Below are positions 6,601-42,547 of a DNA stretch of 64,000 bases, in pieces (positions within the stretch are counted from its first letter, which is position 1; each line of letters begins with the position of its first letter). This DNA comes from Raillietiella orientalis. Taxonomy: Eukaryota. Location: positions 62,001 to 126,000 of the forward strand of contig JAYWIR010000005.1 in NCBI GenBank assembly GCA_036172245.1. Reading direction: 5' to 3'. The position numbers were made by a program, and so were the translations under genes. The notes under the pieces were generated by a model that saw nothing but the letters and a program-made list of their open reading frames with translations, was not told the DNA's origin and did no database searches.

Positions 6601-9600
6601 ATCGGAAAGCGAATACCATGGGAGGAGCTTCACGGCGTGCATCCAGAGCGAGGCAGCCGTCGATCCAGCCCCATGAGGACCCGGGACAGCTGGCAGGGAG
6701 CAGGAAAGGGGGCTCTGCACCGTGAGCAGCAGAGACCACCAGGTGTCACTTGGCGGCGGCGCACTGAGAGCGCGCCACAACAGCTCGGGAGGCTGCCATG
6801 CCGACCGCCTGCTCGGTTCGAAATGGGGCTGCTCCCCTGCAAGAGCCAGACGCGCCCTCCGGACCGGATTTCTTCGCGAGGGTCCAGCAAGTCGGCCGAC
6901 AGGCGACCAAGAGCCACCTGCGAGCAGGAAAACCCCCGGGGCGAATTGCTAGGCAGCTGGTCGACCTGCCTTGCGACGATGCGCCCTCCGGGTTGCCCAG
7001 GGGAAGCAGGCAGCCTTCTGTGGGGACCAGCCCGCGTTCCCCCGCAACCTCGGTGTCGCAGTGACGCCGCCATCGCCTCAGCTCGCGCGCTGTAGCTGAG
7101 AGGGAACCGACCGTCAATCGCTCGTCGCGGCAGCTCCGAGAGGCGCCTGGGGACGCGGCGTCCTTTTGGCGCCCCGAGTCCTTCCTCTCCTTGAACAGCT
7201 CTCACGACTGCCGGACGGGAGCGAGGAGAAGGACAGGTCCCGAGGTGAGGTCACCCCTTCTTCCAGGAGACCCTCTTTCCACGGGCCTCCTGGCGTTCTC
7301 TCCCTTTTCCTAGGGGAGAAAGGGGGAAAGGGGGTGAGCGCGTCCTCTCCTTCTGCCTGTCTGCGTCTCTCTGGTCCACGGAGGCGGCTGCGGCCGCGGG
7401 TGACGTCTCCTTTTTCTCCCCCAGGGGACACCCGGAGCAGCGAACAGCCCGCCCTGGCGGCTATGCACACCATCTGGATGCGCGAGCACAACCGCGTGGC
7501 GGAGGATCTCCGCCGCGTCAACCCCCACTGGGGAGACGACCTTCTCTACGAGCACAGCAGACGCATCGTCAAGGCGACCATGCAGCACATCACATACAAC
7601 GAGTTCCTGCCTCGCATCCTCGGCTGGAACGCCGTCAGCCTCTACGAGCTCAACGTCAAGCCCGAAGGCTACTGGCACGGTGAGGCCGACCTCCCTTCCA
7701 GGGCACCTCATGCCCCCTGCCCCCAGGCTACGACTCGACCTGCAACCCCACCATCCTAAACGAGTTCGCTGCGGCTGCCTTCCGCTTCGGCCACAGCCTC
7801 ATCCGCCCCCGCTTCACCAGGATGAGCCCCGACTTCTCCCGATCCCGGTCCAGCATCCAGCTGAAGACGTCTTTCTTCAACCCAGAGGTCCTCTATGAGC
7901 CCGGGGCGGTCGACGAGATCCTGCGCGGCCTCAGCACGACCCCCATGGAAACCCTGGACGCGTCCATCACGGAGGAAGTGACCAACCACCTCTTCGAGGA
8001 GGAAGACGTTCCCTTCTCGGGGTTTGACCTGGCGGCCTTCAACATACAGAGAGGTCGGTGCTCCTCCCTAGTACCCCTCCGGTGGCGGAGTCGCTTCTGA
8101 CGCAACGGCGGAGTCCTGAAGGTTCCGTCCCTTCTCGACCCGCGGAGGTGCGGGGCGCTGTGCCTTGGGTCACCCGGGCTCGACCGTCCCGTCTCCCCGG
8201 AGACGCGAGGCACCGAGTCCCACCTGCCGTTCTCGAAGGTGGCTCAGGGGGGCCTCCCTATCTTCTGCCGTCGACCCTTGCCCTTTCTTCTGGTAGTCAT
8301 CCTCGGATCGGCCGCGAAGAGCTGGTCGAACACCGCTGCGCAGAACGAGCGCTCCCCTCGTCTCCCATTAGGACTCGGAAGAGTAGGAAAGGGGACACTT
8401 TTTTTCACTACCACTATCTTCCCACCCTCCACTTCCACCCTCGTCTCTATCATCCTCAGCTACTTGCTGACTTCCCCGTCCCCTTGCCCCGTCTCCCGAA
8501 GTCCTCGGAGCCAAAAAGTACGTCCAAGGAAGGAATTTTGCACCCCTTCGCATCCCCCCCCCCCACTCCTGCGCCGAAGCAGCAGCAAACCTGAAACCGG
8601 GAATGGAGGAGACGTGAGGCGGATGGCGGTAATAACGGCACGGACTCCCGCGCAGAGAAGCCTTCGGAACGTCCGCGAGTAACGTCCCAAGCCTTTGGCA
8701 GGCGAACCGCGCGGAGGTGCTGTGAACTGTCTCCAGCATGTCTCCAGCATCCAACTTTCTTCTTCTTCTTCCGTATGATGGCACTCGATCTATGCACGGG
8801 AACTGGGAACCTACCACACTATACGAGCCCTGCGGATAGGACGGTAGTTACGAAAGACACGAAGCCCATCTTCAGCATCATGGCACCAGGGTACTTCGTT
8901 ACTCGATCTGATCCTGTGGCAAGGAGATCAAAGGTGTTTGTTGGTCATTCGACTTGGAAGACTTTGGAGTTTTGCTGACACCGAATCGACGGAGAAGCAA
9001 CCTGAAGAGTTTGAGGTCGATCATCCCCCGTCAACCTTTCCTGCCCTGCTGCGTCCGCGAGAATCGCCGTGAGACAGAGTTCGACCCTTCATCGCGTGTT
9101 CGTTTGTTTGTTCTCTCTGTCTCCCTTCCAAAACACTGACACTGTATCAAAATTCGTCCGCAGCGCCTCATCAGGTGGAGGCACCGCGCTATACGAGGAC
9201 CGTTGCCAGTTTTCCGCCGTCGTTCCGCCACACCCGGGGCTCTACTCGTGCCTTATTTTTCATCCACGCCGGTCATTCACGTGTCCAGTTGCACGGGTGC
9301 ATCCAATTAGCCCATCGTTATTCAATTAAATGTGTCCACACCCGCACGTAGCGCAGCATTCTCGCCTTCGGGAGGTCAAGGAAGGCTTCGTGACCTTGGA
9401 GACTTAGGAGGTTAGCCGCTGCACGGACACCCGTTAAAGTGGTGGGAGTCGAGGAAATGGAGGGGTCGCCTTCACGGCAGGACGTGCTCGGCAGCAGGAC
9501 GAAAGAGAGGGGAGAGAGCATGGCCAAGCCGCGAGTCGCCCTGGGGACGATCTCGCGGTCTCCGCGCAGCACTCCTGGAACGGCTTGAAGAGTCCGCACG

Positions 9601-12247
9601 GAGAGGGGACCCGTGGGAAAGAGATCCTGTGAAGCGCCAGAGGGAACGCCGATAGAGAAAGCGAGAGGACGTCCCTCTCGCTCCATTGCGTGAGTGCCGC
9701 GGCTTTTGCTTTCCGGCCTGCTCCCGGAAACCGAGAAGCACCCGGGAGGTGCAGAGAGACTCGAGACTCGAACCTCTCCCCGGTCCCAGGAGACCTCCTC
9801 AAGAAGAGCCTCGCCCCCTTCCTGTCGATTCCTTCGTGGCCGTCTGCCGAGGGGAGGCTGGTCTTCCCGGTCGACTTTTGCGAGGTGCCGAGGGGACGCG
9901 CGGATCCACCTCTCGCCCCAGCCCGGTAGCAGCGGAAAAGTCGGGTCGGAATCCTCGGACTGGAACGCGCGACGGCGGTCTCTTCTCTCTATCAGCTCCG
10001 ACTCCAGATTGCCAGGCGATCCGGCTACGGTCCCGAAAAAAGGGGGTGAGGCGCCCTGGGTCTGCTTGCATTTCGAGGTGGCGAGGCAGAAAGCCTCCGG
10101 ACGAGCGCTGCGGTTCCTCTCCTGCAAGGGTAAGAACGGAGCGAGGTGGGTCCCTCCGGGTGCGAAACACGGAGTCCACGTCCCTGGTGTACCACAGGAT
10201 GATGAAGGTCACTCTCTAAGATGCAAAGGAAGCCCCCCTGTTCCCCACCGCGCACCGAAGACAAAAACATTCTTTGGCTCAGTCTTGAAACGGCGGTTGA
10301 CTTCCCTCTCCCCTCTCTCTCTCGAGCAGCATTGCCGCCAGAGATTCCCTTCCTGGTCCACTGTTCTTGTGCAACCAACAGGTCGAGATCATGGCCTGGC
10401 TCCGTACAACGAGTACAGGGCACTTTGCAACCTGAGCACGGCCATCACCTTCGACGACCTGTCCAGGGAAATCCACGAACCTGCCCTCCAACACTTCCGC
10501 GAGATCTACGAGGACGTCGACGACATCGACCTGTTCACGGGAGGCCTGAGCGAGATGCCCCTTCACGGCGGTCTCGTGGGGCCCACCTTCGCCTGCATCA
10601 TCGGCATCCAGTTCCGCAACCTACGCCGGTGCGACAGACTGTGGTCAGGAGGGAGGGCGTCATGGCCTCAGGGAGTTCTGGAAGAATCCCATCACGCAGG
10701 TACGAGAACGTCGACCCCATGGTGCGGTTCACGGAGGCCCAGCTCGCGGAAATCCGCAAGACCACGCTGGCGAAGGTGATATGCGAAAACTCGGACACGA
10801 TGGACGGCGTGCAAAGGTCACTGTTCGACCTTCCGGACCACTTCCTGTGAGTCCTGCTCTTTTTCTTTTTTTTCTTTTGGAAGTGTTCTGCGGTGGCTGC
10901 TTCCAAGGTGGCCGGCAGTCCAAACCGCCGCGTGGTCCACCGCAGTTCCTCCTAGTATCCACTCTCGGATGCTGTCCTGCGCAAATCGCATACTGACGTG
11001 ATGTAAGAGACAAGAGCAGTACAGAGCGTTCGACAACGCTGAAATTGCTCAACAAGTACAGCTGGCAGCTAGATTTAGACTGTTAGATGGCCATGCGCGT
11101 TCCCCATGCACGCTCAGAACACACAGCCCAGCGCCCATATGGACAGGTGCACACCAAAACGCACATGGTTTTTCCGGAAACACATATGCTATGCGTGAAG
11201 GAACGGCTCCAGATAACCCTGCTGAGGTGACCACGGCTATGCGAAATGACCTTGCGTTCTCCCTTCAGAATCATACGGAAGAAAAGATGGAAACTGCTGA
11301 AGCTGAAGGGAGCAGCATAAAGACGATGCTGGTGGGACCGCCGACATCGGAAAAGGGTAACTTCCCAAGTCAGACAAAAGAAAGTTCCAGCTAAACTATC
11401 GTCCATCGACTTGGACGGCAGAGTTTCAGTCGAACCCATGTGACACAGCTTTCCTACTTTGACCCTTTAGACACACCGATTGCCCTTGATTGATCACAGA
11501 TCGGCTACTGCGAATCGCTACCGTGAAGCAACTGCGTGAAAGGAGCAAAGTGTTCGTCATAATAATGCGAGTTTTTGGAGTTAGTTCCACAAACTGCTTT
11601 GATGAGTAGTTTGGCACCAACAAGTTGCGCACTTACACGACATGAGTAAACCTCAGCACTTCAAATGTTAAGCACACAAGAGTTTGTTTTAACAACAAGA
11701 ACGGACACCGTCGCTAATTCAGCAAAGCCGCTTTCCGAGCTTTAAACTCTTAGAATGTGGTTTAACGGGAGATATGCACAAAAAAAAAAAGCCTTGGAAA
11801 TATTCATCTGAGGTGTTTCCTCTAGATTCACACCCGTTAGCAAAGTGGCAGAAAATTCACTCATATGTTTATTTCTGTTAAACGTTAGAAATCCACGCAC
11901 AAATTGCGACAACCTACTTAAAATCGACTTGGAGGAATGGAGGGAGAGAATCTCCTGCAGGGTTGCCAACATATCTTTTGATATTGGGAAAGCTCAACGT
12001 ATTTCTCCGTGCGTTACATGCACCTGCACGAAGGAAGGCGTAAGCTGATCACTGAAAACCGAAAAAGTTGTCTTTTTAGCCCATATGCCAATCATTGAAA
12101 ATTAAGAATTGCTTTCAATTAGCCCAGTTATTTAACCACGAAGACATCCTGAACGATCACATCTGCAAAGTGCAATGTGCTTTCGCTTTCCGTTTGATGC
12201 CTCGAATAGAGCCAGTGGACAAAAGCCAGTTAGGATTTTCGACATGA
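633..12247 (+). CDS. Animal heme peroxidase (chorion-peroxidase/CG10211-like), 3' part. Exons 633-806, 3507-3719, 7425-7679, 7727-8053, 10382-10643, 10700-10846, 11889-12039, 12080-12247; upstream exons lie outside the window
   Basis: Phase-compatible GT-AG exons join into GFEGSILDCQSCDSP..CMPLTRSLPGQLTLG / FRDQINQVTSFLDASAVYGS / GDTRSSEQPALAAMHTIWMREHNR (distal Arg) / NEFAAAAFRFGHS (proximal His) / NIQRGRDHGL / DIDLFTGGLSE..GPTFACIIGIQFRNLRRCDRLWYE. A Cys-rich tail (SPCVTCTCTKEGPICQSL..CKVQCAFAF..LGFST) ends at TGA 12245-12247. Confidence 0.93.
1488..2582 (-). mobile_element. SINE-like copy B, interrupted by an oppositely oriented head fragment
   Basis: Head at 2582-2420, body to ~2011, and tail 1725-1488 ending in a T-run on + (A-run on -). 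Confidence 0.72.
1727..2010 (+). mobile_element. SINE-like copy A, 5' ~280 bp only, nested in copy B
   Basis: CCTGCGTCGGAGG..GTGGCACCACC..GGGTTCGAAT..GGGTTCGAGATCC..AGATGACGCTGG..GACCCTCCGGGGTCCATCCAGGAA. Confidence 0.75.
4112..4213 (+). mobile_element. SINE-like copy C, 3' tail only
   Basis: Close match to 48985-49085 (CCGGGGTGCCCCCTATCCTG, duplicated GAATTACAC, CGTGGAAACAAA). Confidence 0.75.
4781..5545 (-). mobile_element. Full-length SINE-like copy D, in a peroxidase intron
   Basis: The reverse complement starts GCCCGCGCTGGCGGCCCTGTGG..GGGTTCGAATCCC..AGATGACGCTG. The tail matches 37570-37755, including the A-rich tract. Confidence 0.82.
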
Positions 12248-14873
12248 AATGTGACAATAGTTTAAATTAATAGAAGGATGGAGCAGAAAAAAACAAAATC
12301 AATTTTTCTTGAAAATAAAAAAAAAAAAAAAAACATAGAAGTGATTTTATTCAATTTTTTCTTCATTTTCATTTCTAATTTTCCTATTGTAGCGGCTAGG
12401 ATGATCGCATCGGAAGAAGGAAACATGATGTTTCCTTCATATGCAATTAACGGATACATCAATACCTTCAGCCAAGAGGAACGTACACGTAGCGTAAAAC
12501 ACGGTCCAAAAGATGTCTTTTCTAATTAACCCCGAGGTTGAAGTGAACCATAGAAATTATTAAAAGGATATAACAGCTGATTTAAGGTTTGATTTAAGGT
12601 TGGCTGGGATCGCGGGAAAGCAGAAAGACGCAGAATCCAAGCAGCGTGGTTTTTTGTGTAGCGTATTTATTTAATTAACCGCCAGCACTTTGCACTCGCT
12701 GGAGTCACATCTGCCGGATTTCACTTCGTCATAAACCATCATTTGCTCAATCATGCAAAAATCAGGGACATTGAAAAAGCCCCATTTTGTTTTCTTGAAC
12801 GGGAAGTTTTCTCCCGTTCAGAGTATCACGAATCATCGGCAACTCAAGGGAAAAGATTTACAAAACGTTGCGAACTTCACTATAGAATTTGATCGATTCC
12901 ATCAATGTGAATGGCTCATGGCTCATCGACGATTCGGAAATTTCCCAGGAAGTGGCATTTTGAGACATGAGATTACGCACAATTGAGAGATATTCAACTT
13001 GACTGCATCCCAAGAATGCTGCAAGCCTTCCTGTAATACTGTTGGATCCCTTATGAACTGATAATTATGAAATGCAGATGCAATCCAGTAAAAGTGTACA
13101 CAGATAAAATTTCAGGAGTAGAAACAAAAGATATCTGTATAGAGAATGCTGTACCTTTTTTTGGTTTGCGTGGTGTGTTGCAGATATCTGTATACTAAAT
13201 GAGGGTTCCAGGGAGCATTTGCCATTTGATACAGAACGAGTTGAAGCTTCTGCAAAAGTGACTGCCAAAGTGCTGAGAGCACTTCCTTGATCTCAAGAAC
13301 TCCCAGGTAACTTCCAGAGTCAGCTCTGAGAATTTCATTCCAGGAAAGTGGCATTCAAATCGCTTGAGTAATTCCCGCTTCGTTCTTCTTGCAGACCCAC
13401 TCATGATTCTTGCTATAGTTTTCAAACTGGAGCTACGGAGTGATGCCATAGGAAGAGGATCGATGGAACTCGAAGGGGACTTATTTTCGGGAAGTAACGA
13501 CAGGGTCAAAGTTTACAGTAGCAGTTGGGAGCAAGTGTCTTCTCGACTGCAAATTAGCATGCGACCTTTCGACAAGGCACAGGGATGTGAATCCATGCAC
13601 GCAGGGTGGGCTTAAAACATCCGAGTGAGAGACGGCCTAAGATGCATCGGTAACTGCAAGCGACCCATTATGACCAGGACATAAGCCCAGTCCCAAGCTG
13701 TGGCAAGAAACAGCGGCGACGAAGTAAATTTAGTACGGGAGCCTTTGTCACTGTCACAGCGACTCGGCAATGCAAGAGAAACTTCACTTTGAAAGAGTCC
13801 TTATATGAAAATGCGACCAGTAAGCAAAAATGAGGATGCTGCTGCAACCTGTAGGTATGATCTGTAGGCATGCTTTTATGGAGTAGAATGCAAACAGTGC
13901 AAGGAACCAGTCCAGAGGGAACGAGGGGCCATGGATCCAGATAGTCTGAGGCTCAGAAGCAGCATCGTCACCCCTCGTAAGTCAGCGAACCAAATGTGAA
14001 ACAGTCGTCTCGACATCGACTGGCGCAAATGAATACTAAACCAAGATTCGCAACACGGGGAAAAAACCTACTCGCAAATAAACATATAACTGAAAGCTTT
14101 TCTCTATCAAGGCTCTTAACATCCACGATGATATATTACTAGTATATATCAGAATTCTTTTCGCTTAAATGGATGAAGGCGGGGCGATGGAAAAATAAAT
14201 GTGTAGAACCAACTATGTAGCTTGACTACAACTGAATCCATTAAACCTCTGCATTACATCGAGCATGCTTAATTAGAACTGCAAATACCCCTCACTTTCA
14301 CAATAGATTTCTCACCTGTGCAGATTCAGCTCCTCTACAAATAATCACATCTCACAGGCAAGAACAGTACACATTCCGGGCACCTTTTGGTGTACTGATA
14401 CTTTTAACATTCTGGGGTCAGGCATTCTTGCATGCGTGGTAATTCCACAACAAATCTCATTTCATTCTCTTAATAAAAAACATCTACTTTTTTAACTACA
14501 TGCATGAGCTTTTGCATGCCACATACATGCAAAATTTGATAAAAAAAAAAAACTACTTAAGATACATTACATACCAAATGTAACAACAGCAAGAGCAACT
14601 TATGTAAATAGCAAAAGAATTACCACATCCAGATAATGAAATACTACCAAAAGTAGCACTTTTTCTTTATTAGATTCTAAATTATTTCAGTTTTTCTATA
14701 ATGCAAAAACAACAGAACAAATTACAACACTGTTAAGTTTTAAACATAGAAAAGGATTGCTTGGATTCCAAGTTTTTCAGCACTTATGTTTGGGATTACA
14801 TGAACACAACAATAACTTCAGTTCATAATGTAAAGTATAGTTTGGGGTTAAGATAGTTGTCTGGGGCTAAAGA

Positions 14874-16425
14874 TCAACCATATGAATGACTTTTATGTGG
14901 TTTGTTAGGATTAAATAACCATGGATCTTTCAGGAACTCTGGACTCTTCAGTAAAAATGACATTAAGCCTATAATCCAAGAATACATTATTAAACACGAT
15001 TACATCCATGCATTTATGCAGAATTTTTGATCAGTGCTATTTACAATATGGTGAGATTCACACAAATATCAATTTGGTGTAAATTCATACACACACACAC
15101 ATATATATATATATAAATTATGACAAAAAATATCCATACATGTAATCTCTGGAACTGAGATACCTTACCTGCAAGTCTTGCTTTCTTTACTTCTCTGGTA
15201 ACATTTTCATACTGTTTTGTACACAAGCCAGTAATGTGCAATGGATACAACCTCCCAGTATATGGTGATACAAACTGGGATAACAATCTAACATTTTTAT
15301 AATCCACTTGCACATTGTATTTGCAAAGAATGCACTGAATTTTTTTCCTCACATATGGATTTTCAATTGTGGGATCTGGCTAAATCAAACACAAATATAA
15401 GAAACTTTTACAAAAAACAAACAAGAATACAAAGTTTATCTTACAATTTAGATGCAAAACAATAATCTAGAGATAGATTAAAATACTAAACGAAAGGACT
15501 GATTCAGAGTTTACAATCACCTTTATGTGATTTAAAATGCAATATGCAAGAATTACCTTTATTACTAACAGAGGAACCCTTCATTTTATTTAACACAACA
15601 CTTCACAGCTTTTTATACTGTAAAGAATAGAAATTCACATAGTGGCACTTTCAACTCAAAATTAAAGTTATCATTAGAACATTTCCTGATACCGAAAAAC
15701 AACAGAGGGCTTAAAGTAGTTTATACATAAAATTAATATACATTGCATTTTGATACAAACACAACAAAGAACTTTATTAGCTAACAAACCTCTTAATATG
15801 TGAAATCACATATTAATAGACCTGAAGGCTTCTTTTGTCTCTGAATTATTGAAATTGATTGAATTTCTCTTAGATTATACAGAATGCTGAAGCTAAAATG
15901 TAACTCACAGTGCAAAAAGTAATGCAAAATAAAACAACTTTCATATTGACAATTTTTTTCTGATCATTACTGCTTAACAATTTTTTTTAAAGAATATGAA
16001 ACATGGAAGAATTGCAAACATTATACCCTTCAGGAAAAAAAAGGCCCCTTTTTGATTCTGTTGCAATAGATATAGAACCCCCCGTACCCCCGAATGCTGC
16101 TGACATACTGCATAGAGAATCAAGAATTGACAGTCCATGACAGAGAAACATTAAAAGTGGGGTGCAGAGAACAATAATTTGCTCTAACAATACCAATAAC
16201 AAAACCCCTATGCTTAAGGCATTTATTTTTTACCATGTCTTTTTCCTGTGCTTGTTCTATTTTTGATTTAATTTTTTCCAAATAGCTGGATGAACCGTCA
16301 TTGGATTTTCCTTCCAAATTTTTTGATAAATAAGTTGACATACATGCTGCACTTATGCTCTTATCATTAAAAAATGACGAAATTTTCGAATGTTTTTTTA
16401 TAAAACTGTTCAGATTTGCCTTCAT
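14874..16425 (-). CDS. MRPS18C: Mitochondrial ribosomal protein S18c (bS18m), ~165 aa. Exons 16425-16234, 15379-15169, 14968-14874
   Basis: Spliced product has a basic Ser-rich N-terminus, then EKDM|PDPTIENPYVRKKIQCILCKYNVQVDYKNVRLLSQFVSPYTGRLYPLHITGLC..VKKARLA|GLMSFLLKSPEFLKDPWLF. This gives the S18 core (CxxC, DYKN.RLL.QF.SP.TG). All junctions are GT-AG and in phase. Exon 1 is less certain than exons 2-3. Confidence 0.88.
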
Positions 16426-16455
16426 TCTAACAAGCACTACTTAACTAAGAAAGGC

Positions 16456-17170
16456 TTAATAGAATTCCTCATCTTCTGTATTATATCGAACAATATTTGG
16501 ATCAAGACCAAAATTCATTAAGAGTTCGGTTAAAGACAGTTGTTTTCCTGCTGAATCTGTATAAATTTCATGAAGATGTTTCAAAACTTCCTGACATACG
16601 TCCTGCCATTTTTTAATTAAAACTTCCAAATCATTCAAATTATGCTGAAAATAACAATAAGATGATGATGAGTGATGGATGGTGCAATTTTCAAAGTTTT
16701 AAATATTGGTGGTTTCATATTTGTATATTTTATGGGTACATCATTCATATCAGGTTACTAACAACATGATCCCTAATCATGTGGATTGTACTTTCTGGAT
16801 CCAGGCATCAGAACCTGGTTGATTTCCATCAAAGTCAACCGAATCACCACATGAATCAACACCTCGAGCTGTTGCAATAAGAAAAAAAAAGAAAAAGAAA
16901 AAAAGCAGCACGATTTTTTCAAAACAGGGAACATTTTTGGGTACATTTTTTGGGCCATTTACGTACCTTTTTCCTGTAAAAGCACACCAATTCCAGTTTC
17001 CTCAGTCGCTCTTCCTTTTGCCCGACACGCTTATGTAGCTCTTCGAGTCGCCTACGAACGGCGGACCCACTCGTGCCGGGGTCGTCGGGCAAATTCGACT
17101 TGGGTGGAGAGCAGCCGGAGTCGACGTCCGCCGGCTTTCTTTTCAGGGATGCGAGATTTCTTCTAAACAT
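16456..17170 (-). CDS. SFR1: Swi5-dependent recombination repair protein SFR1/Mei5 homolog, ~130 aa. Exons 17170-16967 and 16644-16456; a further upstream exon is possible
   Basis: KEERLRKLELVCFYRKK|HNLNDLEVLIKKWQDVCQEVL..QLSLTELLMNFGLDPNIVRYNTEDEEFY* matches the SFR1 C-terminal pattern (LRRLKLV.MYR.K..L..LIKKW..LSLTQL...GLD...Y...EEF). Donor GTACGT, acceptor TTTTCAG, phase 0. Confidence 0.85.
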
Positions 17171-19032
17171 GAAATGTTCAGAAGTGATGACCTGGAGCGG
17201 ACATCATGACTAACCACACCGCGACCCGAAGAATGTACTCCTGCAGCACGGAGGTGACTACGGGACAACCCACAATTCCTAGTGAGCCGACTACAGACAG
17301 TCATGAATCTCTCAGCACACCCCGGGACTGCGTTGGTTTCCCCTTCCGACCAGTCGGGACTGCTTCGTGTGCCCGAGATATACGGGAAGCACGTGGTCAG
17401 AAGGCCACGAAAAGGGTGCAAGAAGAGGTTGGGGTAACCACCTTCCGACTGCCTTTGAGTCTCTCTCCGCTTCGCCACACTTCTTCGGTGCACTCTGAGG
17501 TCAACTACGAAGGTCTGAACACTTTGACTAGGCACCAGTACTGCTTTCATTTTAGCTCATTGCATTTTTGGCTGCGTGGAAGAAACACTTTGTCACTTGT
17601 GTTCTGAAAAACCGCTTTCCTGTGCAAAAACGGAACGTTGGCTACAAGAAATACTCCTGACATGTAGAAACAGATTCCTATGAAGAATAAAACCGACATG
17701 GAGATTTCCACCCAAAATACTTTCATTCAAACAACTTCTATGAAAAAGAATATTTGTAAAAAAAAAATTGGGGGCAACTTGCAAAGGTAAATTCCCATTG
17801 ATAATATGGATAAGGTTTTCGTAGGACTTCTAGATAATCTAGAACGGTGAATTTTGAAAAAACATTTACTAAAATAAAAAAACAATTGTTCGTTGTATCA
17901 ATGGAAACTGAGTGACGTGAATCTCGCGGTAAAAGGTCTCAAATGATAGGTTTTGTCTATTTCCAAAACAGCATTGCCAGCTCAAAAGAGAAAAGAAACT
18001 CAAAAGAGAACCTTCACAGTTTCTGGTTTGTACGTTCTGATTTTTTTATGACGCATGCAAAGTATCTCTTACTGAATTCTTTAGGTGATGCATCCAGAAG
18101 AAAACCTGTATTCAGGATTCAGATTCATTTCCAATCCTTATTTTGTATATCAATTCTTGATTTATTTATCTATTTTAAGTTTTTGACATTATTTTAATGA
18201 CAATCTAGGCCTTGATAGCAAATTAGCTCGATCAGCTATCGAGAACATCCTTTTTAGTTTAAAGGTATTCCTTCAACAATTTTTTCCTCAAAATTTTGTA
18301 TTTGAATACAAACTGAAATATGGAATGTGACTTGCAATGACATGGAGATATAAAAGTGGCAATTCTCTTTGGTTTTAAATTGACTTTCAACTCTGATTAA
18401 TAATGTATATTTTTGAACGGATGTCTGTTGAACGGATTAACCATGACAAAATCAGAAGAATCCATCAGAGCAGCCAAAAATGTAAATACAAACGAAAAAT
18501 AAGACTGGTTCATCTCGTCATCCTTGAACACTCTTAAAATTAGTGAATCACATAAAAGCATTCCAACTGTGGATAGAAAAATAAGTATTTAACAAAAACT
18601 CCTTCAAGTACGCTGTAGTCCGCGAAGGAATGAATATAGCAATAAACTTTAAACTCCTCTAAATTTTAAGGACTGATTTCACTGAACGTAAGCCGAATGA
18701 AAGCCACACTAGGAAATGATGAAAATATGAGGGAAAATTCAAGAATGTTTATTATGTGGGAACTTGGGGAAAAAAATCATTTGAAGCCATGTCAGCTATG
18801 TCCTCTAACAAAAGTATTGGATTCTTCAAGGTGAACTTTGACTCCTAAAATGATGATAATTGAGTTTGACTGAATTCAGCATAATGCAATTTTCAAGAGC
18901 TTAGTTCCTTTCTGTATCGTGATTTTAGCTCCGTGTTTGATGACAGTGTCTTCAGTCATTGAATGCAGCCTTTCGCATTATCGATTTAGGAGTTCATATT
19001 TGTATTTCTAAAGTAATGGATTAGTTACACGA

Positions 19033-19325
19033 GTAATGGAGTTTAGGTTGACCTAGTGATGAATGTGAATTTCAGTATGCTTTAACATAAAGACGTTGCA
19101 AGAAGCTGAACCTTGGAATCTTTTTGTGCACACTCACTAACATCGCAATACTTTTTCTTCTTTTCTTAATAAGTGATCCTCCTTTTTTAAAGGAAATGAG
19201 AAATTCCATTTATGAATGAAACTTTGAGGACATTCCATATTGAAACGTGGCATGTAAACCCCTTTTTGCACTCTTGAGCCTATTATTTCCCCTTTCTAGT
19301 TTCAGGATAAATAAGTATAGTGAGT
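19033..19325 (+). repeat. Left arm of a ~290-bp inverted repeat (partner 22941-23236)
   Basis: For example CTAGTGATGAATGTGAATTTCAGTATGCTTTAACATAAAGAC and ATACTTTTTCTTCTTTTCTTAATAAGT both recur as reverse complements near 23.1-23.2 kb. Confidence 0.88.
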
Positions 19326-20549
19326 AACAATAATTCACAGCCTTTACAGTTCTTTCGTCAAAACGTTTCCTTACATATGTTCCAGATTACAAATTCAGGA
19401 ATGTTGAATTTTGATGTAAATTATTCGAAGCTGTTGAAATGAGGGTAATAAGGTTCGCTTGCGGTAAATAAATTTGCAAAATATTAATTGTGACAGACAG
19501 TTAATGAAAATATCCAGTATAATGTAAGTAAACTGCACTGTGAAATTACGGTGGCAGACATTGATTCTGTGGTATCTAGAAAAAGGCAATAGAAGAAGCG
19601 TCTAATTTTAAAAATATATATATATATTTAAAATATGCTTATTACTACTTTAAGTCTGTCTTGATCTTTTCCTCTTTCTTTTGCTCGTATCATCTTAGTG
19701 TCATTAGCAAACATCTCATTTTGTTCCTCAGCTCTCGTGTTTTTTTCTCTACAGCTACAGTATCTGTGAGGAGTTGATTTCTTTCTGCTTCCAAATCTCG
19801 AATCTTCTTCGATTCCATTCAGGCCTCCAGTGGAGATGGTTTCCCGGCTCTTATGTATCTCGGGTAAGCCCATTAATGTTCGTTTCCATAACGTATGATC
19901 ATATATAGTATCGCCAAATCTCAGTTTTCGTCAAACCAGCTAAATATACAGACTTGAATTAATATTGACGTTCTATTTATGAAACTTCTAAATATATGAA
20001 ATCTATTGGAATCAGGACAAAATCTTCGAATTTACCCAGCCCAGGATTACGATAGAAAATGAGTTAATTATCACAAAGTCTGAAAATGCAATCCATTCAT
20101 CGACGTCAAACTTGAAATAAATCTACGATATTCTTTTAACACATCACTCTCCCTGAGGTTCTTTGGATTTTTCTGTTTACTATGTGAAAGAATTCTTAGA
20201 AACGTGGAAAAAGGTACAAAAGGAAAGAAAGTCTGGGGTGGAAGGACGGAGACCTTTTCTCCTACATCTTTTGATTGGAAGCACACTTCGTCACTACTAC
20301 TACTTTAGTGGTCATCAATTCACAAGAGTTCGAAAGTTCTGCTCAAGCACTGTGAATCCTCAATTCCCGATTCTGATGATTTCTTGCAAACAGAGCTGTT
20401 ATAAAATCCAAATTAAGTCAAGACAAACACATGAGGATCGAGAGAAGAAACGCAATTAATCGAATGATTCCCATTTCCAGCCATACCACTACTTCTAGGG
20501 ATTGGCCATCAATCGGCTCCAGGATATCTAGAGAGGATGTGCCATCCGC

Positions 20550-21070
20550 ATATCTTGCTGGTCTTTCTTTACAGAGACCCACTTTGTATAGTCTTCATGT
20601 TGCTCGTAGAGTTCGTATTGGCACTTCTAGGAGGGTTTGATGGGTTGTCTCTAAAAAGTTATCATGGTTAGCTTATCGCATACTTCATAATGTCATACCA
20701 TACTTGGCACGCACTGCTTTTGAGAATCCACAAGTGTTTCTGCAGTATGTTCACAAAGAATCTTTTGAGAGCCTTTTGGAACTTTTTTTATGAGAAGAGC
20801 ACTTGGGAAATGCACCTATTTGCTCTACTTCCCATTACGTCATTTCATCCAACTTCATCATCATCCAACTTCCACATCTACAAACACCTACAAACTACAA
20901 ACACCACCACACCTACAAACATTCTTATGTGGCAAATTAAAGAAAATGTCACAGTCACCTTATAATCCACCCCGACCACGCCCATCGTAATTCTCATCAG
21001 ATTAAACCTAACAATTCCATATCTAAACTTCCTAAATGGTCGCACCAACCCATAACTTCCTAATTTCTTT
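20550..21070 (+). mobile_element. Possible highly degenerate LINE C-terminal (zf-RVT) remnant
   Basis: SWLAYRILHNVIP, then across frameshifts KCFC..AFWN..STW..ILMWQIK, resembling the zf-RVT region. Confidence 0.35.
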
Positions 21071-21579
21071 ATATAACCCTTGCAAGAGTCATTGAATCAT
21101 AGGAAACAGATTTGACATGAGTCTTCATCAATTAGTTTTTTATGATGCGGTTTTGTATTTAAGCATCTGGCATCCCTCATAGCTTCATTCTGCAGGATTC
21201 ATAAGATTTTATTGATTTGGATAGCAATCTTCACTTCTTTACTGTTTTTTTGTAGACATAAAAACTTGAATATTGGTTTTTATTTTCCTTTTTTTTTAAC
21301 CCTCCCATTACTCTTTTATGATACCTGCATGAGCATTTAAGTGTTTGAAAATTCTTCATTTTTATATCGCATTTGCAGAGTGGTGAAAATGCTTTCTTGT
21401 GACAGTAACTTAGATATAGGCGCAGAAGAATGGCGATTTGCCTAGCGAATTATTTAACGTCCACTTCAAAAGGGAAAAAAAAACCACAATGGATTTCAAT
21501 GCTCAACCGCTTCTTATGGAAAAATGGAGAACGCATAACGACTGCGGTGGACGGTGGTGCAGGGAGGCGACATCCATTT

Positions 21580-22700
21580 CCACCGGACGCGCCGGGGCGT
21601 TTATTTCCAGAATAAACGTATTACAAGAACTGTGTGGTTGGACCACGGGTCCAACCACGCACAATTTAATGGAGACTTGTCGGGTCACCGGTTCTCAGTC
21701 TGGCGCGGCCCACCACGGCAGCAGAGCGGAGGGGACAAACAAAAAGAAATAAAAAAATGAAGATACATACCCGTTGGGGGGGTGCGGGAAGGGATCATGT
21801 TCTGCTATTGGCGGTCCGGTCCATCTTCCGTAGGATGTCGGCAAGGTCTTGCTGGATATTTCTTTCCAGGTGGGGCCATCGCGTTGCTATCCCGACGAAG
21901 TGGATGACATCCCAATCGCTGGGTCCTCCTGTTGCTTTGCTCCATACAGCGACGATCGCTGGTAGGCGGCACTGGACTGTCAGCGAGGCCTCTGGCCGAA
22001 GGGCATCGCGAACGAAGAGGGGTTTCAAAGCGTCCCTGGAGTTGCCTCCGGGGGTTCCAAGGGTCGAGGCAAAGAGTCCTCTAAGGGGCCGGAGGGCAGC
22101 ACAGTCCACTAGCAGGTGGGGGAGGGATTCACCCCTGCACCTGACACAGTTGGGATCCACATACATTCGCGTCCCGTGATGACGGCGGGCGTTGCACGGG
22201 GGGCCCCAGTGTGGCAGCAACAGCGCCGATTCCTGCCACTTCAAGGGGAGGGTGTGGGTGTCCACAAGCACCAGGGGCCAATTCAGGTGTTCCAACGGAA
22301 CATCCAGTAGCTCGTTCCAGAGGGAGAGACCGTGGGGTGGTATACTCGGGGTCGCAGCGTCGGTGAACTGACCCGTCTTCCACTCACCCAGCAGCCCTCT
22401 CTCCCTTCCGGAGGTGGTTACCTTAACTTCCCATTTCGCCACGATGCTGCTGCTTGGGTGTTCCCTAAGGGAGGGCAGCGCTCGACGAAGGAAGTTCTTC
22501 CTGCCCACTCGCTTTTTCCGGGATCCTCCAGGATCTCCCGAAGCGTGCAGCGGTTGTTGCGCACGAACAGGAACCGGCTCTCCTGTTCCGTGCGCTGCTC
22601 CTGGTTCCTCGGCCACCTGCGCAAGGCAGGAGATCCTGTAACCAGTTCGTGTAGCGGCAGGAGATCCATCCCGTTTTCTTCCTCGTCAGACTGGCCACCC
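21580..22700 (-). mobile_element. LINE 3'-end fragment, family B copy 1 (zf-RVT + 3' UTR)
   Basis: TLREILED..PNCVRCRGESLPHLLVDC..LFVRDAL..RWPHL..DLADILRKM. It aligns with 36114-37180 and 56860-57930 through the ORF, the T-rich tract, a hairpin and the AATAAACGCCCCGG end. Confidence 0.8.
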
Positions 22701-22940
22701 GCCGAAGCTGCAATCCTCAATGGGGAAGGCGACATCGAAGGTTGAGAACAAATGGTCAGATGGTTAAGAAAACAGTCAAGTCCTAGCTGTGCCACTGCGT
22801 TTTTATTCTATATGCGTATGTCCTCGGCATGCCATCAAAGTGTATACTGTATAAATAAAATGAATTTTAATGGATCGGAAACTCCCGGTTTTGAAATCAA
22901 ATCCTACTCTTATGCTAAAGTAATCGTACTCGTAAGTAAA

Positions 22941-23236
22941 ACTCCACTATACCTATTTATCCTGCAACTAGAAAAGGGAAATAATAACGCTCAAGAGTGC
23001 AAAGGGGTTTATATGCCACCTTTCAATATGGAATTTCTTTGAAGTTTCATTCATAGGTGGAATTTCTATCTGATTGAGGGAAGTGAGGATTACTTATTAA
23101 GAAAAGAAGAAAAAGTATCGCAATGTTGGTGAGTGGGCACAGATAACTTCCAAGGTTCAGCTTCTTACAAGTCTTTATGTTAAAGCATACTGAAATTCAC
23201 ATTCATCACTAGATCGACCTGAACTTCCAGTTTTAC
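22941..23236 (-). repeat. Right arm of the ~290-bp inverted repeat
   Basis: The reverse complement aligns colinearly with 19033-19325 (roughly 85% identity by eye). Confidence 0.88.
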
Positions 23237-25185
23237 TTACAGAGATGCAGTTTCCATTTGCGTTATGCAGTGTACATGGAGTCGTAAGTTAAGCCCTTGT
23301 AAGCCCTGTAAGTTAAGCCTTTGTATTACTACCTCGAAGGCATCAGCCAAGTTCTGAAATCAAATCTGACTTTGAAATGCCTGAAGTTTTCTTACACTGT
23401 TCGTCTTTCATCGACGTCTTATCTCGTGTAGGTTACGTCCCTTGTGAATGGAGCAATCCAGATCGTTTTGAGAAAGAAAAAACCAACCTCTGGTTTAATA
23501 AGTAAGTTTTTTTTTCTTCTTCTTCTCTTCTTTCATTGAAAAGTATCGTTTGAAAGTAAGGGGTATCTTATTTTCAAGAAAATGATCGTGTGAGCTTTCC
23601 ACAGTCTAGTGACACGCAGCGTGCAAGACCCAAGTCTTGTTGTACGTGTAAATATCATCATCATTAGTTTCAGCTTCTGCAAACGACACTCCTGTCAATG
23701 TGTTTGCATGCCGACTCACTGTAAGAACATGAATGGGTCGCCCCTGCAGGCTAAACCAACTTAGATCTGAAAACTGTGTAAGGAGGCAGAAAGTTGAGGC
23801 ACCGATGCTGAGTAACGTCGAGTGTGCCTGACTACCCTTTTCCAGAAGATCATGAGACCGTATTCGGCTGCGTGACCTGATGGTAAAATCCATGCAGAGT
23901 GACATACCAGGGGGACGTCTATGAAAGAACAGAGCACATGTCTGTTTGTTTTTTGTAGACAACTCCCCTTTATTCTTTCATCATTGCAGGTGAGACAGCG
24001 ATTGGAAGCAAAGAGGCAGGCATGATGATTTTTTCCGTTGACTTGCTTGTCTTATGTGTTTGCGTGTTTTTTTTTCTCTCTTATTTTTGTTCCTTTGCTT
24101 GAGAGCTGCGCTTGCAGGAAATACTGCCATCCAAGGGGAGATTTTCATGTGGAATAAGAGCCACATCATGACCTGTTCTGTGAAATAAAAGGCTTGAAAA
24201 CAGCTAACAATAACTTTGGTGGTTTTGTATGGAATGCTTTGGAAACATTTGTAAAGAAAAAAAAAATCCATTAGATGTATATATTTGAGACTAGCATTAA
24301 AATACTTATTTCTTTAACAGATATACTTCCGCCTTTGGCCGAAATGAAAGATGGGATGACAGCAGGGACTTTCATTTTACAAATACTTGCAGGACCTTTG
24401 AGGATATGAACTGGAATTATTAGTAAAAAAATTTTATTTTATAGTGATAGTGAAAAGTGAAAAGAAAAACAGCTCTGTGTATTAGGAGAAAGCGAATGCA
24501 GGACCATTACAAGAAACCGAAACTCTGACCTTCGATCGTTGTTATCTTTCAGAACGTCAGGAATCGTAATTAATTCTTGTTTAAAATCGCAGTAGTACAA
24601 AGCATCAAAGTCACGGGGTATCTTCCAGGCTGGCTTCTGGGGAGCCACATCCCGAGCAAAATCTCGAAACTTGTCCAGGTTCACACTGAACCCCAGGCGA
24701 GAAATGCAGGAGACCTGATACGCCAGTTGAGGATGCGCGACACCAGATCAAATAGGGATTCTTTTTCTCACGTAGTAGCTTTCGTTCTTGATCTTCGCCG
24801 AATCGCAGATTCCGGAAATTTTTGAGTTCTCCGATTCGCAGATTCATCTTAGCGGTTACTTGGCACGCAAAGTTTGGCATCATCTCTTATGCAACGAGAA
24901 TTTCAGCGTTTACTCCGCACCAATGGCTCACGCCTCAACGCACACCCATTCGTGCACCACGAAAGAGGAGAAAGTTTGGTGCTACGATGTTAGCTTCATT
25001 CTGTTTTGTTTCGACTGGTGACCAAGGCCATTTTCTTCACTCAGATGAGACGACATCGGTCAATGATTTGCTTCATCAGGACGTGAACATCTCACAAGCA
25101 CCGGAGATTGTTCTTCAGGAAAAAGCGATTCTTCAGCAAGAAAATTTTGCTAACGAGCTGAGGGAATGAGAGATCCGATCTGACA

Positions 25186-25790
25186 GCGGGTGCCTCCGTC
25201 GACCGGCCGGAATTGAAAGCTGGCCCTCCGGGGTCCTTCCAGGAATAAAAAGGAGCCCTTCGGGATTCCCCTCCGGTTAGGCAAACGGAGCTGCCCGAGG
25301 GGGGAGGGGGCGAACCTTCCATCTCTTACCATGCAGCTGGTGGATTTATCTCTCTCCAGAGTGCGAAGAAGCGTGCTGCTCCCTTCGTCGAGCTTCAAAG
25401 AAATTGGGAAAGCGTCCCTTCGGGGTTCTCTCCAGAAAAGGAAGCAAGGAGAGGTCCCTCCTGCTGGCGAGAAGAAATTCCCGGAGCGGATCCCTTCCCG
25501 GTTCCCTCCGAAGGAGAAACGAGGAGCGACTCCCCCCGGGGTCCGTTCGGGCGACCACTCAGGAGGGAACAGGGAAGAGGTTCCCTAGAAAGCATGGGAG
25601 GAGACGCTTCCTCCTCTGGAACCTTCCTGGAACCATGGGGTGGTCCCCTCCTGGGGTACCCCCTATCTCGAAGAGTTACTACATGCACCCTCGGGTGGCG
25701 CAGGCAGTGTCAAAGAACCACCCCCATCCCTCTCCCCCAAGGAGTCGAACGGTTCTTTAGCACTTGGCGAACCCCAAAAAAAAAAAAAAC
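25186..25790 (+). mobile_element. SINE-like copy E, headless
   Basis: CCCTCCGGGTCCTTCCAGGAA, CCCTTCGGGGTTCTC, CACCCTCGGGTGGCG, CGGTTCTTTAGCACTTGGCGA followed by an A-run. Confidence 0.78.
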
Positions 25791-25975
25791 GAGAACAACG
25801 AACCAGAAAAGATCGTCCCATGAAGAATTCCCCACAAGAACCGTGCTTGTAGATTTCCCACACACGGCTCCACAATAATAGCGTTCACGATGTATCTCCT
25901 ATGTATATAAAGAAAAGCATATTTTTGGCTTTGGAGTGGATTGACTTGTGTGTAATACTTGTTCCCAATTCGTGC

Positions 25976-26020: not shown

Positions 26021-26081
26021 CAGCCCTTCTCATAATAGTCCAAAAGAGGTAAGGTAAGGATTTATAGTAGTGAAGGTAAAG

Positions 26082-26665
26082 ATGCCAGCAGCATATAGGT
26101 ATGTCTTCAGAAAAAAAGCAATGGAAGCTTCGGATGAAGGAGAAAGCACAGCAGATGTTGCCAAAAGGTTTAAAATTGGCGAGACAGCTATATATGAGTG
26201 GAGAAGAAGACGTAAGGGAACAGGAGATTTTCAGTCAAGAAAGCCTGGAAGCGTGAGTTATAATCATAAAATTACTGACTGGGATGTATTTGCTGAATTT
26301 GCAAAAGAGCATGGTGGCAAAACTCAATCGGAGATGGCCAAACTTTGGAGCCATATCAGCAGGCAGACAATTCATCGAGCACTTAAAATCATGGGATGCA
26401 CAAGAAAAAAAAGACCTACGGATATAAAGAAAGAAGTGAGGAAAAGCGAGCTCAATTTGTAAAGATTGTAGCAACAAGAAATCCTGATGATCTCGTGTAC
26501 ATCGATGAATCAGGAATAGACAACACTGAAGATTACGCTTATGGATATTGTAGAAAAGGAGAGAGGTTTCCTGCACTAAAATCTGGAGTGAAAAGTCAGC
26601 GCATTAGTATGATTGCAGCGTCAAATAAAAAGAAAATAATTGCCTCGATGACCTTTGGAGGACAT
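26082..26665 (+). mobile_element. IS630-family transposase, 3'-truncated; two ORFs joined by a -1 frameshift at the A8 run (26405-26412)
   Basis: ORF1 is MPAAYRYVFRKKAMEA..VAKRFKIGETAIYEW..KITDWDVFAEFAKEHGGKTQSEMAKLW..TRKK (HTH). The -1 frame continues KTYGYKERSEEKR..LVYIDESG (first catalytic Asp)..QRISMIAA. It closely resembles Wolbachia IS630 proteins as I recall them. Confidence 0.88.
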
Positions 26666-26916: not shown

Positions 26917-27255
26917 TGTGGAGTTGTGGTTAAAGCTCAAATTCACGCAGGTGGCAGAGGTAAAGCTGGTGGTGTGAGGCTGGCAAAGTCGGCTGAAGAA
27001 GCTAAGCAGTTTGTAAAGTCTATGCTGGGCATGACTTTGATTACTCACCAAACAGGGTCAAAGGGGCAGCAAGTAAGGAGAGTATACATTGAGGAAGGCT
27101 CAAGCATTTACAAAGAGTGTTATTTAAGTTTGGTACTTGATCCAAAGCTCAGTAGACCAACATGCAGATTTTCCTCAGAAGGTGGAATGGATATTGAAGA
27201 AGTTGCAAAAAATTCTCCTACGAAAATTGTAAAATTTGATATTGATTATATCTGA
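26917..27255 (+). pseudogene. sucC: Bacterial succinyl-CoA synthetase beta subunit internal fragment
   Basis: [96 protein letters not shown]. It lacks the N-terminal ~40 aa and the C-terminal half, has no introns, and is of alphaproteobacterial (Wolbachia-like) type. Confidence 0.9.
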
Positions 27256-42400: not shown

Positions 42401-42547
42401 TGTTCCCTTTTTATTTACATCAGCATATTACAAAATTGATTCTTGTTCTCAACACTGTGAGTGCACTTTGATAATTTACTGATTATGCAGATTTTAACAA
42501 ACAAATGATTTTTTAAGAACTTCTCTGAATTCTTCACTCCCAACAAC

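Follow-up and report, generated by a model that had tools for sequence, protein, structure and literature searches.

The SFR1 and MRPS18C genes at this locus raise the question of how two protein genes with a very short same-strand gap between them are expressed, as one transcription unit or as two. In the 64-kb window, i.e. the whole stretch of 64,000 nt that was analyzed, both genes are located on the minus strand, and the tandem arrangement reported by the first-pass annotation is right to the base level. Re-reading of the sequence and recomputing of the coordinates confirmed the SFR1 stop codon TAA at 16458-16456, the MRPS18C ATG at 16425 and a gap of exactly 30 nt. The two ORFs share a frame, and the additional in-frame TAA at 16443-16441, which had been said to block a read-through fusion, was recovered upon recomputing. 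The recognizable genes of the window are separated by many kb, and in such a setting it is unusual for two intact and conserved genes of unrelated kinds to follow each other on one strand at a distance of 30 nt; since the window is not gene-dense, compaction does not explain this distance.

The SFR1 model consists of two exons on the minus strand (17170..16967 and 16644..16456; 393 nt, 130 aa), with slashes marking the exon-intron junctions here and below:

16967..17170, minus strand, SFR1 coding exon 1: 68 codons, phase 0, ATG at 17170
16645..16966, minus strand, SFR1 intron: 322 nt, donor AAG/GTACGT, acceptor ...TTATTTTCAG/
16456..16644, minus strand, SFR1 coding exon 2: stop TAA 16458-16456, six ATGs

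The Mei5 domain identifies the predicted product as SFR1/Mei5 (Swi5-dependent recombination repair protein 1). Exon 2 is matched by Pfam Mei5 (PF10376) with an E-value of 2.3e-11 and 44.4 bits against a cutoff of 28, and by a profile of 36 SFR1 homologues, built with the window sequence excluded, with an E-value of 1.1e-28. The end of exon 1 is matched by positions 20-51 of the same profile (E 4.1e-4). A word-index search of the protein collection with exon 2 returned no match, and BLASTP gave no alignment between exon 1 and the homologue P0118. The protein ends in ...NTEDEEFY directly before the stop, which fits a domain located at the C-terminus (...E-D-x-x-F-[YT]). Among 36 single-stretch SFR1 homologues, 33 likewise have the domain end at, or 1-9 residues from, the C-terminus, while the remaining three continue for 24-49 residues past it. 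The intron, which follows Y-[RK]-K-K, is at a position common to locus L001, as judged by eye. The context of the ATG at 17170 is weak, with T at -3 and T at +4. Exon 2 and the spacer together contain six ATGs, compared to shuffle means of 4.8 and 6.4, so there is no depletion; the lack of an internal ATG in exon 1 is not significant (P 0.04 with a mononucleotide shuffle, 0.21 with a codon shuffle).

The MRPS18C model comprises three exons on the minus strand (16425..16234, 15379..15169 and 14968..14874) that yield an intact frame of 498 nt and 165 aa:

16234..16425, minus strand, predicted MRPS18C exon 1: 64 codons, phase 0, donor ATG/GTAAAA
15380..16233, minus strand, MRPS18C intron 1: 854 nt, ahead of the conserved P, a position also seen in L001 and L013
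15169..15379, minus strand, MRPS18C exon 2 with the S18 domain: Pfam Ribosomal_S18
14874..14968, minus strand, MRPS18C exon 3: stop TGA 14876-14874

Here, the Ribosomal_S18 domain and its conserved cysteines identify the predicted protein as MRPS18C/bS18m. Exon 2 is matched by PF01084 with an E-value of 2.4e-17 and 63.2 bits (cutoff 21), and it has the invariant C16, C19 and C53. In the protein collection, 103 homologues of this exon were found with a best identity of 63-68%, and its best named matches are all 'S18c, mitochondrial'. The C-terminal exon was matched by tblastn in many loci, and the protein groups weakly with malacostracans (support 80/81). The predicted exon 1 is of a different kind, as it has no detectable homology: it found no match in the word-index search of the protein collection, gave no BLASTP alignment with Panulirus S18C, and was not matched by a profile of homologue N-termini, which retrieved nothing above noise among 304 ORFs (stop-to-stop, at least 15 codons, both strands, window positions 14000-21000). 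The exon is predicted from its phase-0 donor, its fitting length, a 101-codon ATG ORF that is longer than chance (P about 0.008-0.025) and its ending. This ending, (E)KDM, matches by eye the D-[MLQ] ahead of the conserved P in homologues, and nearly all of 25 aligned MRPS18C homologues have D at -2 before this P. By a crude count, the N-terminal 30 residues include five K/R, seven S/T and one D/E, with the first acidic residue at position 21. Fusion proteins of the two genes were absent from 26 MRPS18C homologues and from the 36 single-stretch SFR1 homologues, out of 53 SFR1 matches in total, the other 17 being of a long, multi-stretch type.

All four exons have canonical splice sites, and an additional acceptor-like site at 16444 lies within the spacer:

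16455..16426, minus strand, 30-nt spacer: sequence GCCTTTCTTAGTTAAGTAGTGCTTGTTAGA; holds CCTTTCTTAG/, TAA 16443-16441 and TTGTTAG 16433-16427

The first-pass annotation had pointed to TTGTTAG, which does end 1 nt ahead of the MRPS18C ATG, as an acceptor-like sequence. The better candidate is CCTTTCTTAG/ directly past the SFR1 stop, with its AG at 16446-16445, a join at 16445/16444 and a pyrimidine fraction of 0.76 that equals that of the real SFR1 acceptor. It had also been stated that the MRPS18C frame is not reached by joining the phase-0 SFR1 exon 1 to either AG of the spacer, which computation bore out. A further possibility had been overlooked: with SFR1 exon 1 and MRPS18C exon 2 (15379) each in phase 0, their direct join is in frame.

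The placement of poly(A) signals is informative for the 3' end of SFR1. A scan for 12 hexamer variants, which covered only positions below 16456, revealed none that starts within the spacer (16455-16426); an AATGAA at 16426 straddles the last spacer base and the MRPS18C start codon. Reading by eye of the SFR1 coding end showed no AATAAA or ATTAAA in the last ~70 nt before the stop and only the variant AATACA (16482-16477). The first canonical hexamers past the stop are ATTAAA at 16272, inside MRPS18C exon 1, and AATAAA at 16227, which sits 7 nt beyond the exon-1 donor:

16186..16272, minus strand, candidate SFR1 poly(A) signals: ATTAAA 16272-16267; AATAAA 16227-16222
14666..14671, minus strand, AATAAA: likely MRPS18C poly(A) signal, ~200 nt past the stop

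The second SFR1 candidate is followed by CA at 16212-16211 (11 nt downstream) and then by a GU-rich run at 16208-16186 (read by eye). As no canonical hexamer precedes 16272, any SFR1 mRNA must carry the MRPS18C start. With two separate CDSs on one strand and none of the scanned hexamers starting between them, the pair is a candidate dicistronic locus in the FlyBase sense, which would also call for a processed mRNA that spans both CDSs.

Upstream of SFR1 lies the sole GC-rich and CpG-rich island near the pair, which is unique in the window:

16751..17550, minus strand, GC/CpG-rich island: candidate shared promoter, SFR1 5' UTR and exon 1

Its GC content is 0.53-0.55 compared to ~0.30 downstream, and the MRPS18C start region has a GC content of 0.30. 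The CpG observed/expected ratio is about 1.0 in the island, 0.43-0.57 at 16001-17000 and 0.08-0.24 at 14251-16250. This stepwise fall would fit one gene body, although the pattern is suggestive only; it is less clear for a second gene of the window (p23-like). A self-BLAST of the window detected no other copies of the island, of both genes or of a downstream GC-richer stretch.

The lack of a hexamer before the MRPS18C ATG and the single island for both genes lean toward a shared transcription unit, and that SFR1 and MRPS18C are driven as one unit from this island has, in our judgment, an even chance of being correct. Every RNA-level step of this model is one that we infer from the gene models, the spacing, the absent hexamer, the island and the motifs, which are themselves read directly from the DNA. 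Transcripts would cross SFR1 exon 2, the spacer and MRPS18C exon 1 as a single 411-nt exon (16644-16234). By one route, cleavage either at ATTAAA 16272 or at the AATAAA with its GU-rich run, 7 nt beyond the weak donor, would generate an SFR1 mRNA with MRPS18C exon 1 in its 3' UTR. By the other, splicing from 16234 to 15379 and on to 14968 would generate an mRNA with both ORFs. The six AUGs of SFR1 exon 2 count against the model, since little MRPS18C would be translated from an mRNA with both complete ORFs, yet every cell requires its mitoribosomal proteins. The tandem order, which is not conserved (see below), and the lack of homology support for MRPS18C exon 1 count against it as well. MRPS18C protein could be obtained from a variant that skips exon 2 by joining SFR1 exon 1 to the acceptor at 16444, which would keep a 73-codon uORF that ends 1 nt ahead of the MRPS18C AUG, or else through internal initiation or a re-initiation of low efficiency.

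The first-pass annotation had attributed the two proteins to one primary transcript by means of re-initiation, SL trans-splicing or a shared leader exon. Efficient re-initiation is disfavored after 130 codons with six further AUGs, and SL trans-splicing gained no support here (see below). Alternative splicing from a common leader or first exon is plausible; a good acceptor-like site is present at 16445/16444. Leaky scanning is likewise disfavored, as it calls for an upstream ORF free of internal AUGs; the six in SFR1 exon 2 would defeat it unless this exon is skipped. Green-algal bicistrons that use leaky scanning resemble the locus in their two ORFs, short inter-ORF distance and weak first AUG (here T at -3 and +4), as far as the portions of PMC7896298 and PMC11291117 covered here describe them, but differ in that the SFR1 upstream ORF has six further AUGs in exon 2. 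If both genes are co-transcribed, expression of a housekeeping mitoribosomal protein would hinge on the promoter of an accessory gene of homologous recombination and on the processing of its RNA, and the locus would represent a clean natural case of competition between a splice site and a poly(A) site choosing between two unrelated proteins.

Dicistronic loci are common in Drosophila, where they account for 2.5% of genes. The part of PMC4528330 covered here lists 159 dicistronic pairs, and its File S1 includes stop-start gaps of 8 nt for mRpL53/CG33155, 28 nt for MED9/CG42518 and 52 nt for Tim10/CG42497. Likewise, the present pair combines unrelated same-strand protein genes of an arthropod with a gap of tens of bases or fewer, and one partner is mitochondrial or mitoribosomal. 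In the same portion of File S1, CG42518 and Tim10 each have a monocistronic transcript that is produced by alternative splicing which interrupts the 5' CDS. Drosophila monocistronic forms arise by alternative poly(A), alternative promoter or such 5'-CDS-disrupting splicing, and the window motifs would allow exactly those. The Drosophila pairs are backed by cDNA, RNA-seq and TSS data, whereas SFR1/MRPS18C is read here from the DNA sequence. Neither SFR1 nor the SFR1/MRPS18C pair is present in part 3 of 6 of File S1, and mRpS18C was not found in the covered parts of the supplementary files other than file 1 (PMC4528330). A literature search for SFR1 with MRPS18C retrieved only unrelated work on E4F1 in breast cancer, and one for mRpS18C as bi-, di- or polycistronic found no mention of it among the papers listed. 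Given the Drosophila loci, this kind of locus is not new and nothing ties the functions of SFR1 and MRPS18C together; the pair, if real, would add to the known dicistronic pairs.

The main rival to one transcription unit is that of two separate, overlapping units, in which MRPS18C has a promoter of its own, within either the intron or the last exon of SFR1, that produces a short 5' UTR. SFR1 mRNAs would still run into MRPS18C exon 1 and end at 16272/16227, and any dicistronic RNA would be an untranslated by-product with respect to MRPS18C. This reading is possible rather than probable. It deals directly with the translation problem, since MRPS18C translation needs an mRNA without the six SFR1 exon-2 AUGs and a transcription start within ~45 nt of its ATG would suffice. 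A TATA-like GATATAATACAG (16487-16476) and an Inr-like CTTAGTT (16449-16443), both AT-rich strings read by eye just upstream of the MRPS18C ATG, could serve such a promoter. Moreover, 'alternative promoter' is the evidence given in most rows with a 3' monocistronic transcript in part 3 of Drosophila File S1 (PMC4528330), and MRPS18C is transcribed independently of SFR1, in convergent orientation, in other arthropod-like contigs. However, these motifs are short strings in 70% A+T DNA, no GC/CpG island or compositional shift marks the MRPS18C start, and it is uncommon for non-compact genomes to have promoters within conserved coding exons.

It is improbable that the genes share a first coding exon. 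In this case, SFR1 exon 1 would be spliced either to SFR1 exon 2 or to MRPS18C exon 2 (15379) and would supply the presequence MFRRNLASLKRKP..., leaving the 16425 ORF as 3' UTR only. The in-frame join to 15379, the basic SFR1 N-terminus (MFRRNLASLKRKP...) and the lack of homology support for MRPS18C exon 1 agree with it. A precedent is available in Drosophila, as mRpL13 and CG10602 have a common promoter, first exon and 49 N-terminal residues (covered part of PMC4528330, supplementary file 6); here, too, a mitoribosomal gene may share its 5' end with an unrelated neighbor. In contrast to that locus, the window pair has a separate candidate first exon ending in EKDM, with the homologue-like D at -2, which makes the shared exon less likely, while the last residues of SFR1 exon 1 are RKK (by eye). 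At 101 codons, the ATG ORF is longer than chance (P 0.008) and the SFR1 N-terminus has acidic residues at positions 15 and 17.

Lower still is the likelihood of an SL trans-spliced operon, in which the transcript is cut after SFR1 and a leader is added at AG 16446-16445 or 16428-16427. Operons of nematodes, tunicates and flatworms share with the locus a very short intercistronic distance and an acceptor-like AG just before the downstream ATG, and the window offers two such sites, one directly past the stop of SFR1 and the other a single nucleotide ahead of the MRPS18C start codon. The variant hexamer AATACA lies shortly before the SFR1 stop (by eye), SL trans-splicing is reported in copepods (PMC4664967) and in the amphipod Parhyale (PMC5111886), and MRPS18C groups, if weakly, with malacostracans. 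Unlike in these operons, no SL RNA was detected in the 64-kb window (no Rfam matches at all), reading by eye revealed no AATAAA or ATTAAA in the last ~70 nt before the SFR1 stop, and no further operon-like packing is visible; the Parhyale SL core motif is at chance level, with one match containing a mismatch in the 64-kb window vs 1.3 expected. Least credible of all is an annotation or assembly artefact, or a decaying copy, with one of the two models not a functional gene: MRPS18C exon 1 is without homology support and searches found no same-species transcript or protein, but neither ORF is interrupted, the splice sites are canonical, the two Pfam domains clear their cutoffs by a wide margin, intron positions are common to L001 and L013, and the region is unique within the window.

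A comparison with other genomes, proposed by the first-pass annotation as a check on the arrangement, supports proximity of the two genes and not their tandem order. SFR1 and MRPS18C are neighbors in two other arthropod-like metagenome contigs, and in both of these organisms (2/2 with both genes on one contig) they are convergent, i.e. tail-to-tail, at distances of 250 nt and 2.4 kb. SFR1 was found upstream of MRPS18C on the same strand in none of 80 loci. A tblastx comparison of window positions 9000-24000 with the comparison loci yielded the known exons and low-complexity matches and nothing else, and inverted repeats that could mark an inversion were not found flanking MRPS18C. The predicted genes are therefore linked by an old association whose tandem, dicistron-like form is not conserved. 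Adjacency in different orientations points to a long-lived linkage, for which a shared chromatin domain and 3'-end overlap are candidate causes. A more specific scenario, which we regard as speculative and rather unlikely, starts from an ancient arthropod neighborhood in which MRPS18C alone was inverted here, so that its ATG came to lie 30 nt behind the SFR1 stop and its own promoter was lost. The outcome would be an obligate two-gene transcript, with the weak donor at 16234 against the strong poly(A) site at 16227 setting the ratio of SFR1-only to MRPS18C-bearing products. If true, SFR1/MRPS18C would provide a datable example of a dicistronic locus arising by inversion.

SFR1, a two-exon Mei5-domain recombination and repair gene, and MRPS18C, a three-exon mitoribosomal S18 gene, stand in tandem with 30 nt between them, and this observation is confirmed. 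When the minus strand was read and the models were recomputed, all coordinates of the first-pass annotation were borne out, as was its claim that the two ORFs share a frame in which read-through is stopped by a second in-frame TAA (16443-16441).

Gene models and spacing at the SFR1-MRPS18C locus
17170..16967 + 16644..16456, minus strand: SFR1, 130 aa, stop TAA at 16458-16456
16455-16426, minus strand: spacer, 30 nt, GCCTTTCTTAGTTAAGTAGTGCTTGTTAGA
16425 (ATG) to 16234 (phase-0 donor), minus strand: predicted MRPS18C exon 1, 64 codons
15379..15169 + 14968..14874, minus strand: MRPS18C exons 2 and 3, giving an intact 165-aa ORF when joined with exon 1

In Pfam, SFR1 exon 2 scores as Mei5 (E 2.3e-11), and Ribosomal_S18 is the match for MRPS18C exon 2 (E 2.4e-17); each score is well over its curated cutoff. 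SFR1 exon 1 is supported by a profile of 36 SFR1 homologues, from which the window sequence was left out: the end of this exon is matched at profile positions 20-51 (E 4.1e-4) and exon 2 at positions 47-112 (E 1.1e-28), contiguously over the intron. MRPS18C exon 1 is the weaker model; a word-index protein search gave no match, BLASTP against a crustacean homologue no alignment, and a profile of the homologues' N-termini no signal. Its ATG-to-stop ORF (101 codons unspliced) exceeds 99.2% of dinucleotide-matched simulations in length, and the length of the exon fits the 46-76 residues found ahead of the conserved core in homologues. By eye, the EKDM at its end matches the D-[M/L/Q] that comes just before the conserved P in almost every one of 25 homologues aligned, that of Homarus also having EKDM, and the following intron has an equal position in two arthropod-like metagenome contigs, L001 and L013. 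The MRPS18C model, first exon included, is probably right, and we hold this with good confidence. MRPS18C intron 2 contains an (AT)n(GT)n microsatellite (about 15095-15125, minus strand).

Among 103 matches in the protein collection, none to MRPS18C came from this species or a close relative, and the best (63-68% identical) were from mites, ticks, Priapulus, horseshoe crabs and beetles; a small tree placed the window protein weakly (80/81) beside malacostracan crustaceans. No SFR1 part was fused to any of 26 MRPS18C homologues examined, and no S18 part to any of the 36 single-stretch SFR1 homologues examined (36 of 53 matches). Metagenome contigs were scanned with the MRPS18C alignment, yielding 80 loci (many short, some bacterial rpsR), and all their six-frame ORFs were searched with the SFR1 profile. 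SFR1 adjoins MRPS18C in three of these, L001, L013 and L014, the last two counted as one organism, which looks insect-like, because they are 99.9% identical over 3.4 kb. In L013 the last SFR1 exon is on the opposite strand, about 2.4 kb past the MRPS18C stop (span 2739-8114; L014 has the identical arrangement), and in L001 (744-1585) the genes converge stop to stop with 250 nt between them. AATAAA signals noted by eye in L001 suggest abutting or overlapping 3' ends. Of the synteny that the first-pass annotation proposed to check, adjacency therefore holds on two other contigs, and the same-strand tandem form does not: the genes are convergent there, and SFR1 lies upstream of MRPS18C on the same strand in 0 of 80 loci. 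With these loci and the window, adjacency of SFR1 and MRPS18C extends to at least three arthropod-like lineages, more than chance would explain. A single inversion of MRPS18C alone converts the convergent arrangement into that of the window; no inverted repeats flanking MRPS18C were found. This neighbourhood, conserved yet re-oriented, is the most original point of the analysis.

At the junction, none of 12 poly(A) hexamer variants starts within the spacer (16455-16426), and an AATGAA at 16426 spans its last base and the MRPS18C ATG. The first canonical hexamers after SFR1 are ATTAAA at 16272, within MRPS18C exon 1, and AATAAA at 16227, 7 nt beyond the exon-1 donor, with a CA 11 nt past it and then a GU-rich run, so no SFR1 mRNA can lack the start codon of MRPS18C or the greater part, if not the whole, of its exon 1. 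A separate AATAAA, at 14671, belongs to MRPS18C. The acceptor-like TTGTTAG reported earlier is present, and a better acceptor-like site, CCTTTCTTAG, lies directly past the SFR1 stop, with a pyrimidine fraction (0.76) equal to that of the real SFR1 acceptor and a first exon base at 16444. Joining SFR1 exon 1 to 16444 leaves a 73-codon uORF, ending 1 nt ahead of the MRPS18C AUG, and no other upstream AUG. SFR1 exon 1 lacks AUGs, an absence not significant against shuffles; SFR1 exon 2 and the spacer contain six, with no depletion relative to shuffles, which makes leaky scanning over a full dicistronic mRNA unlikely. Upstream, a 9-codon uORF (ATGATG...TGA; 17204-17178, minus strand) ends 8 nt ahead of the SFR1 ATG, and a further ATG lies at 17304; SFR1 would be under uORF control if its 5' UTR extends that far.

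A single GC-rich island (GC 0.55, CpG o/e about 1.0), unique in the window, stands at roughly 16750-17550; downstream of it CpG o/e drops first to 0.43-0.57 and then, across MRPS18C, to 0.08-0.24. A second island at the MRPS18C start, looked for by composition, was not found (GC 0.30). This is, indirectly, the expected look of one gene body behind one promoter; the pattern is less clear for the second gene checked, two ORFs (42415-43233, minus strand) that resemble p23/PTGES3-type co-chaperone (CS domain) exons by eye, neither matched by Pfam at E<=0.001. Over the MRPS18C gene body (14251-16250) CpG depletion is extreme (o/e 0.08-0.24, most of the window being at 0.6-1.0), which may reflect methylation of gene bodies in the germline of this organism.

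For the shared transcript proposed in the first-pass annotation, this indirect evidence leans mildly towards co-transcription, and the reading we prefer, at about even chances, is one transcription unit for both genes from the single island. All RNA-level steps we infer: SFR1 mRNA would come from cleavage at 16272 or 16227, RNA with both ORFs from splicing at the weak donor 16234, and MRPS18C protein from an exon-2-skipping variant, re-initiation or internal initiation. The pair fits an already known dicistronic kind, which it would extend if the shared transcript is real. In D. melanogaster, FlyBase lists 159 dicistronic pairs, 2.5% of genes (PMC4528330); File S1 of that study gives stop-to-start distances of 8 nt for mRpL53/CG33155, 28 nt for MED9/CG42518 and 52 nt for Tim10/CG42497, and for CG42518 and Tim10 a monocistronic transcript via a splice variant disrupting the 5' CDS. 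The literature searched mentions SFR1 and MRPS18C jointly only in unrelated work, with no report of this pair or of mRpS18C as bi-, di- or polycistronic, and mRpS18C is absent from the searched part of the Drosophila supplement, file 1 set aside (PMC4528330). A nested MRPS18C promoter is a possible, somewhat doubtful alternative; it would provide the required AUG-free leader and agrees with independent transcription of MRPS18C elsewhere. A shared coding first exon, which the first-pass annotation had not considered, is improbable; SFR1 exon 1, like MRPS18C exon 2, is phase 0, so the two would join directly in frame, and Drosophila mRpL13/CG10602 have a common first coding exon (PMC4528330, supplementary file 6). 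An SL operon is more improbable still; in the window Rfam found nothing and the Parhyale SL motif occurs only at chance frequency. An artefact is scarcely credible.

Elsewhere in the window, animal haem peroxidase exons (about 7100-10800, plus strand; An_peroxidase, E 1e-34, two ORFs) sit in a very GC-rich stretch crowded with overlapping ORFs. A fragment of bacterial-type succinyl-CoA ligase beta (sucC; 26920-27255 with 26058-26462, plus strand; ATP-grasp_2, E 4e-44), with an IS630-type transposase HTH ORF just upstream, shares 83% protein identity with a Wolbachia endosymbiont (next best bacterium 66%). It has the appearance of a host-genome insert derived from Wolbachia, or else of a piece of symbiont sequence joined in error. 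Mobile elements include a piggyBac-type transposase fragment (DDE_Tnp_1_7; 30236-30670, plus strand) and the reverse transcriptase of a non-LTR retrotransposon (RVT_1, E 1.7e-33; 31502-33877, minus strand). A GC-rich interspersed repeat family occurs on both strands (about 1900-2700, 5000-5700, 25200-25900, 28300-28900, 37200-37600 and 48700-49400); in the ORF listing its translations have the common strings 'EGTPKGT' and tRNA-end-like 'FEPAT/DSNPQ', and it is probably a tRNA-derived SINE.
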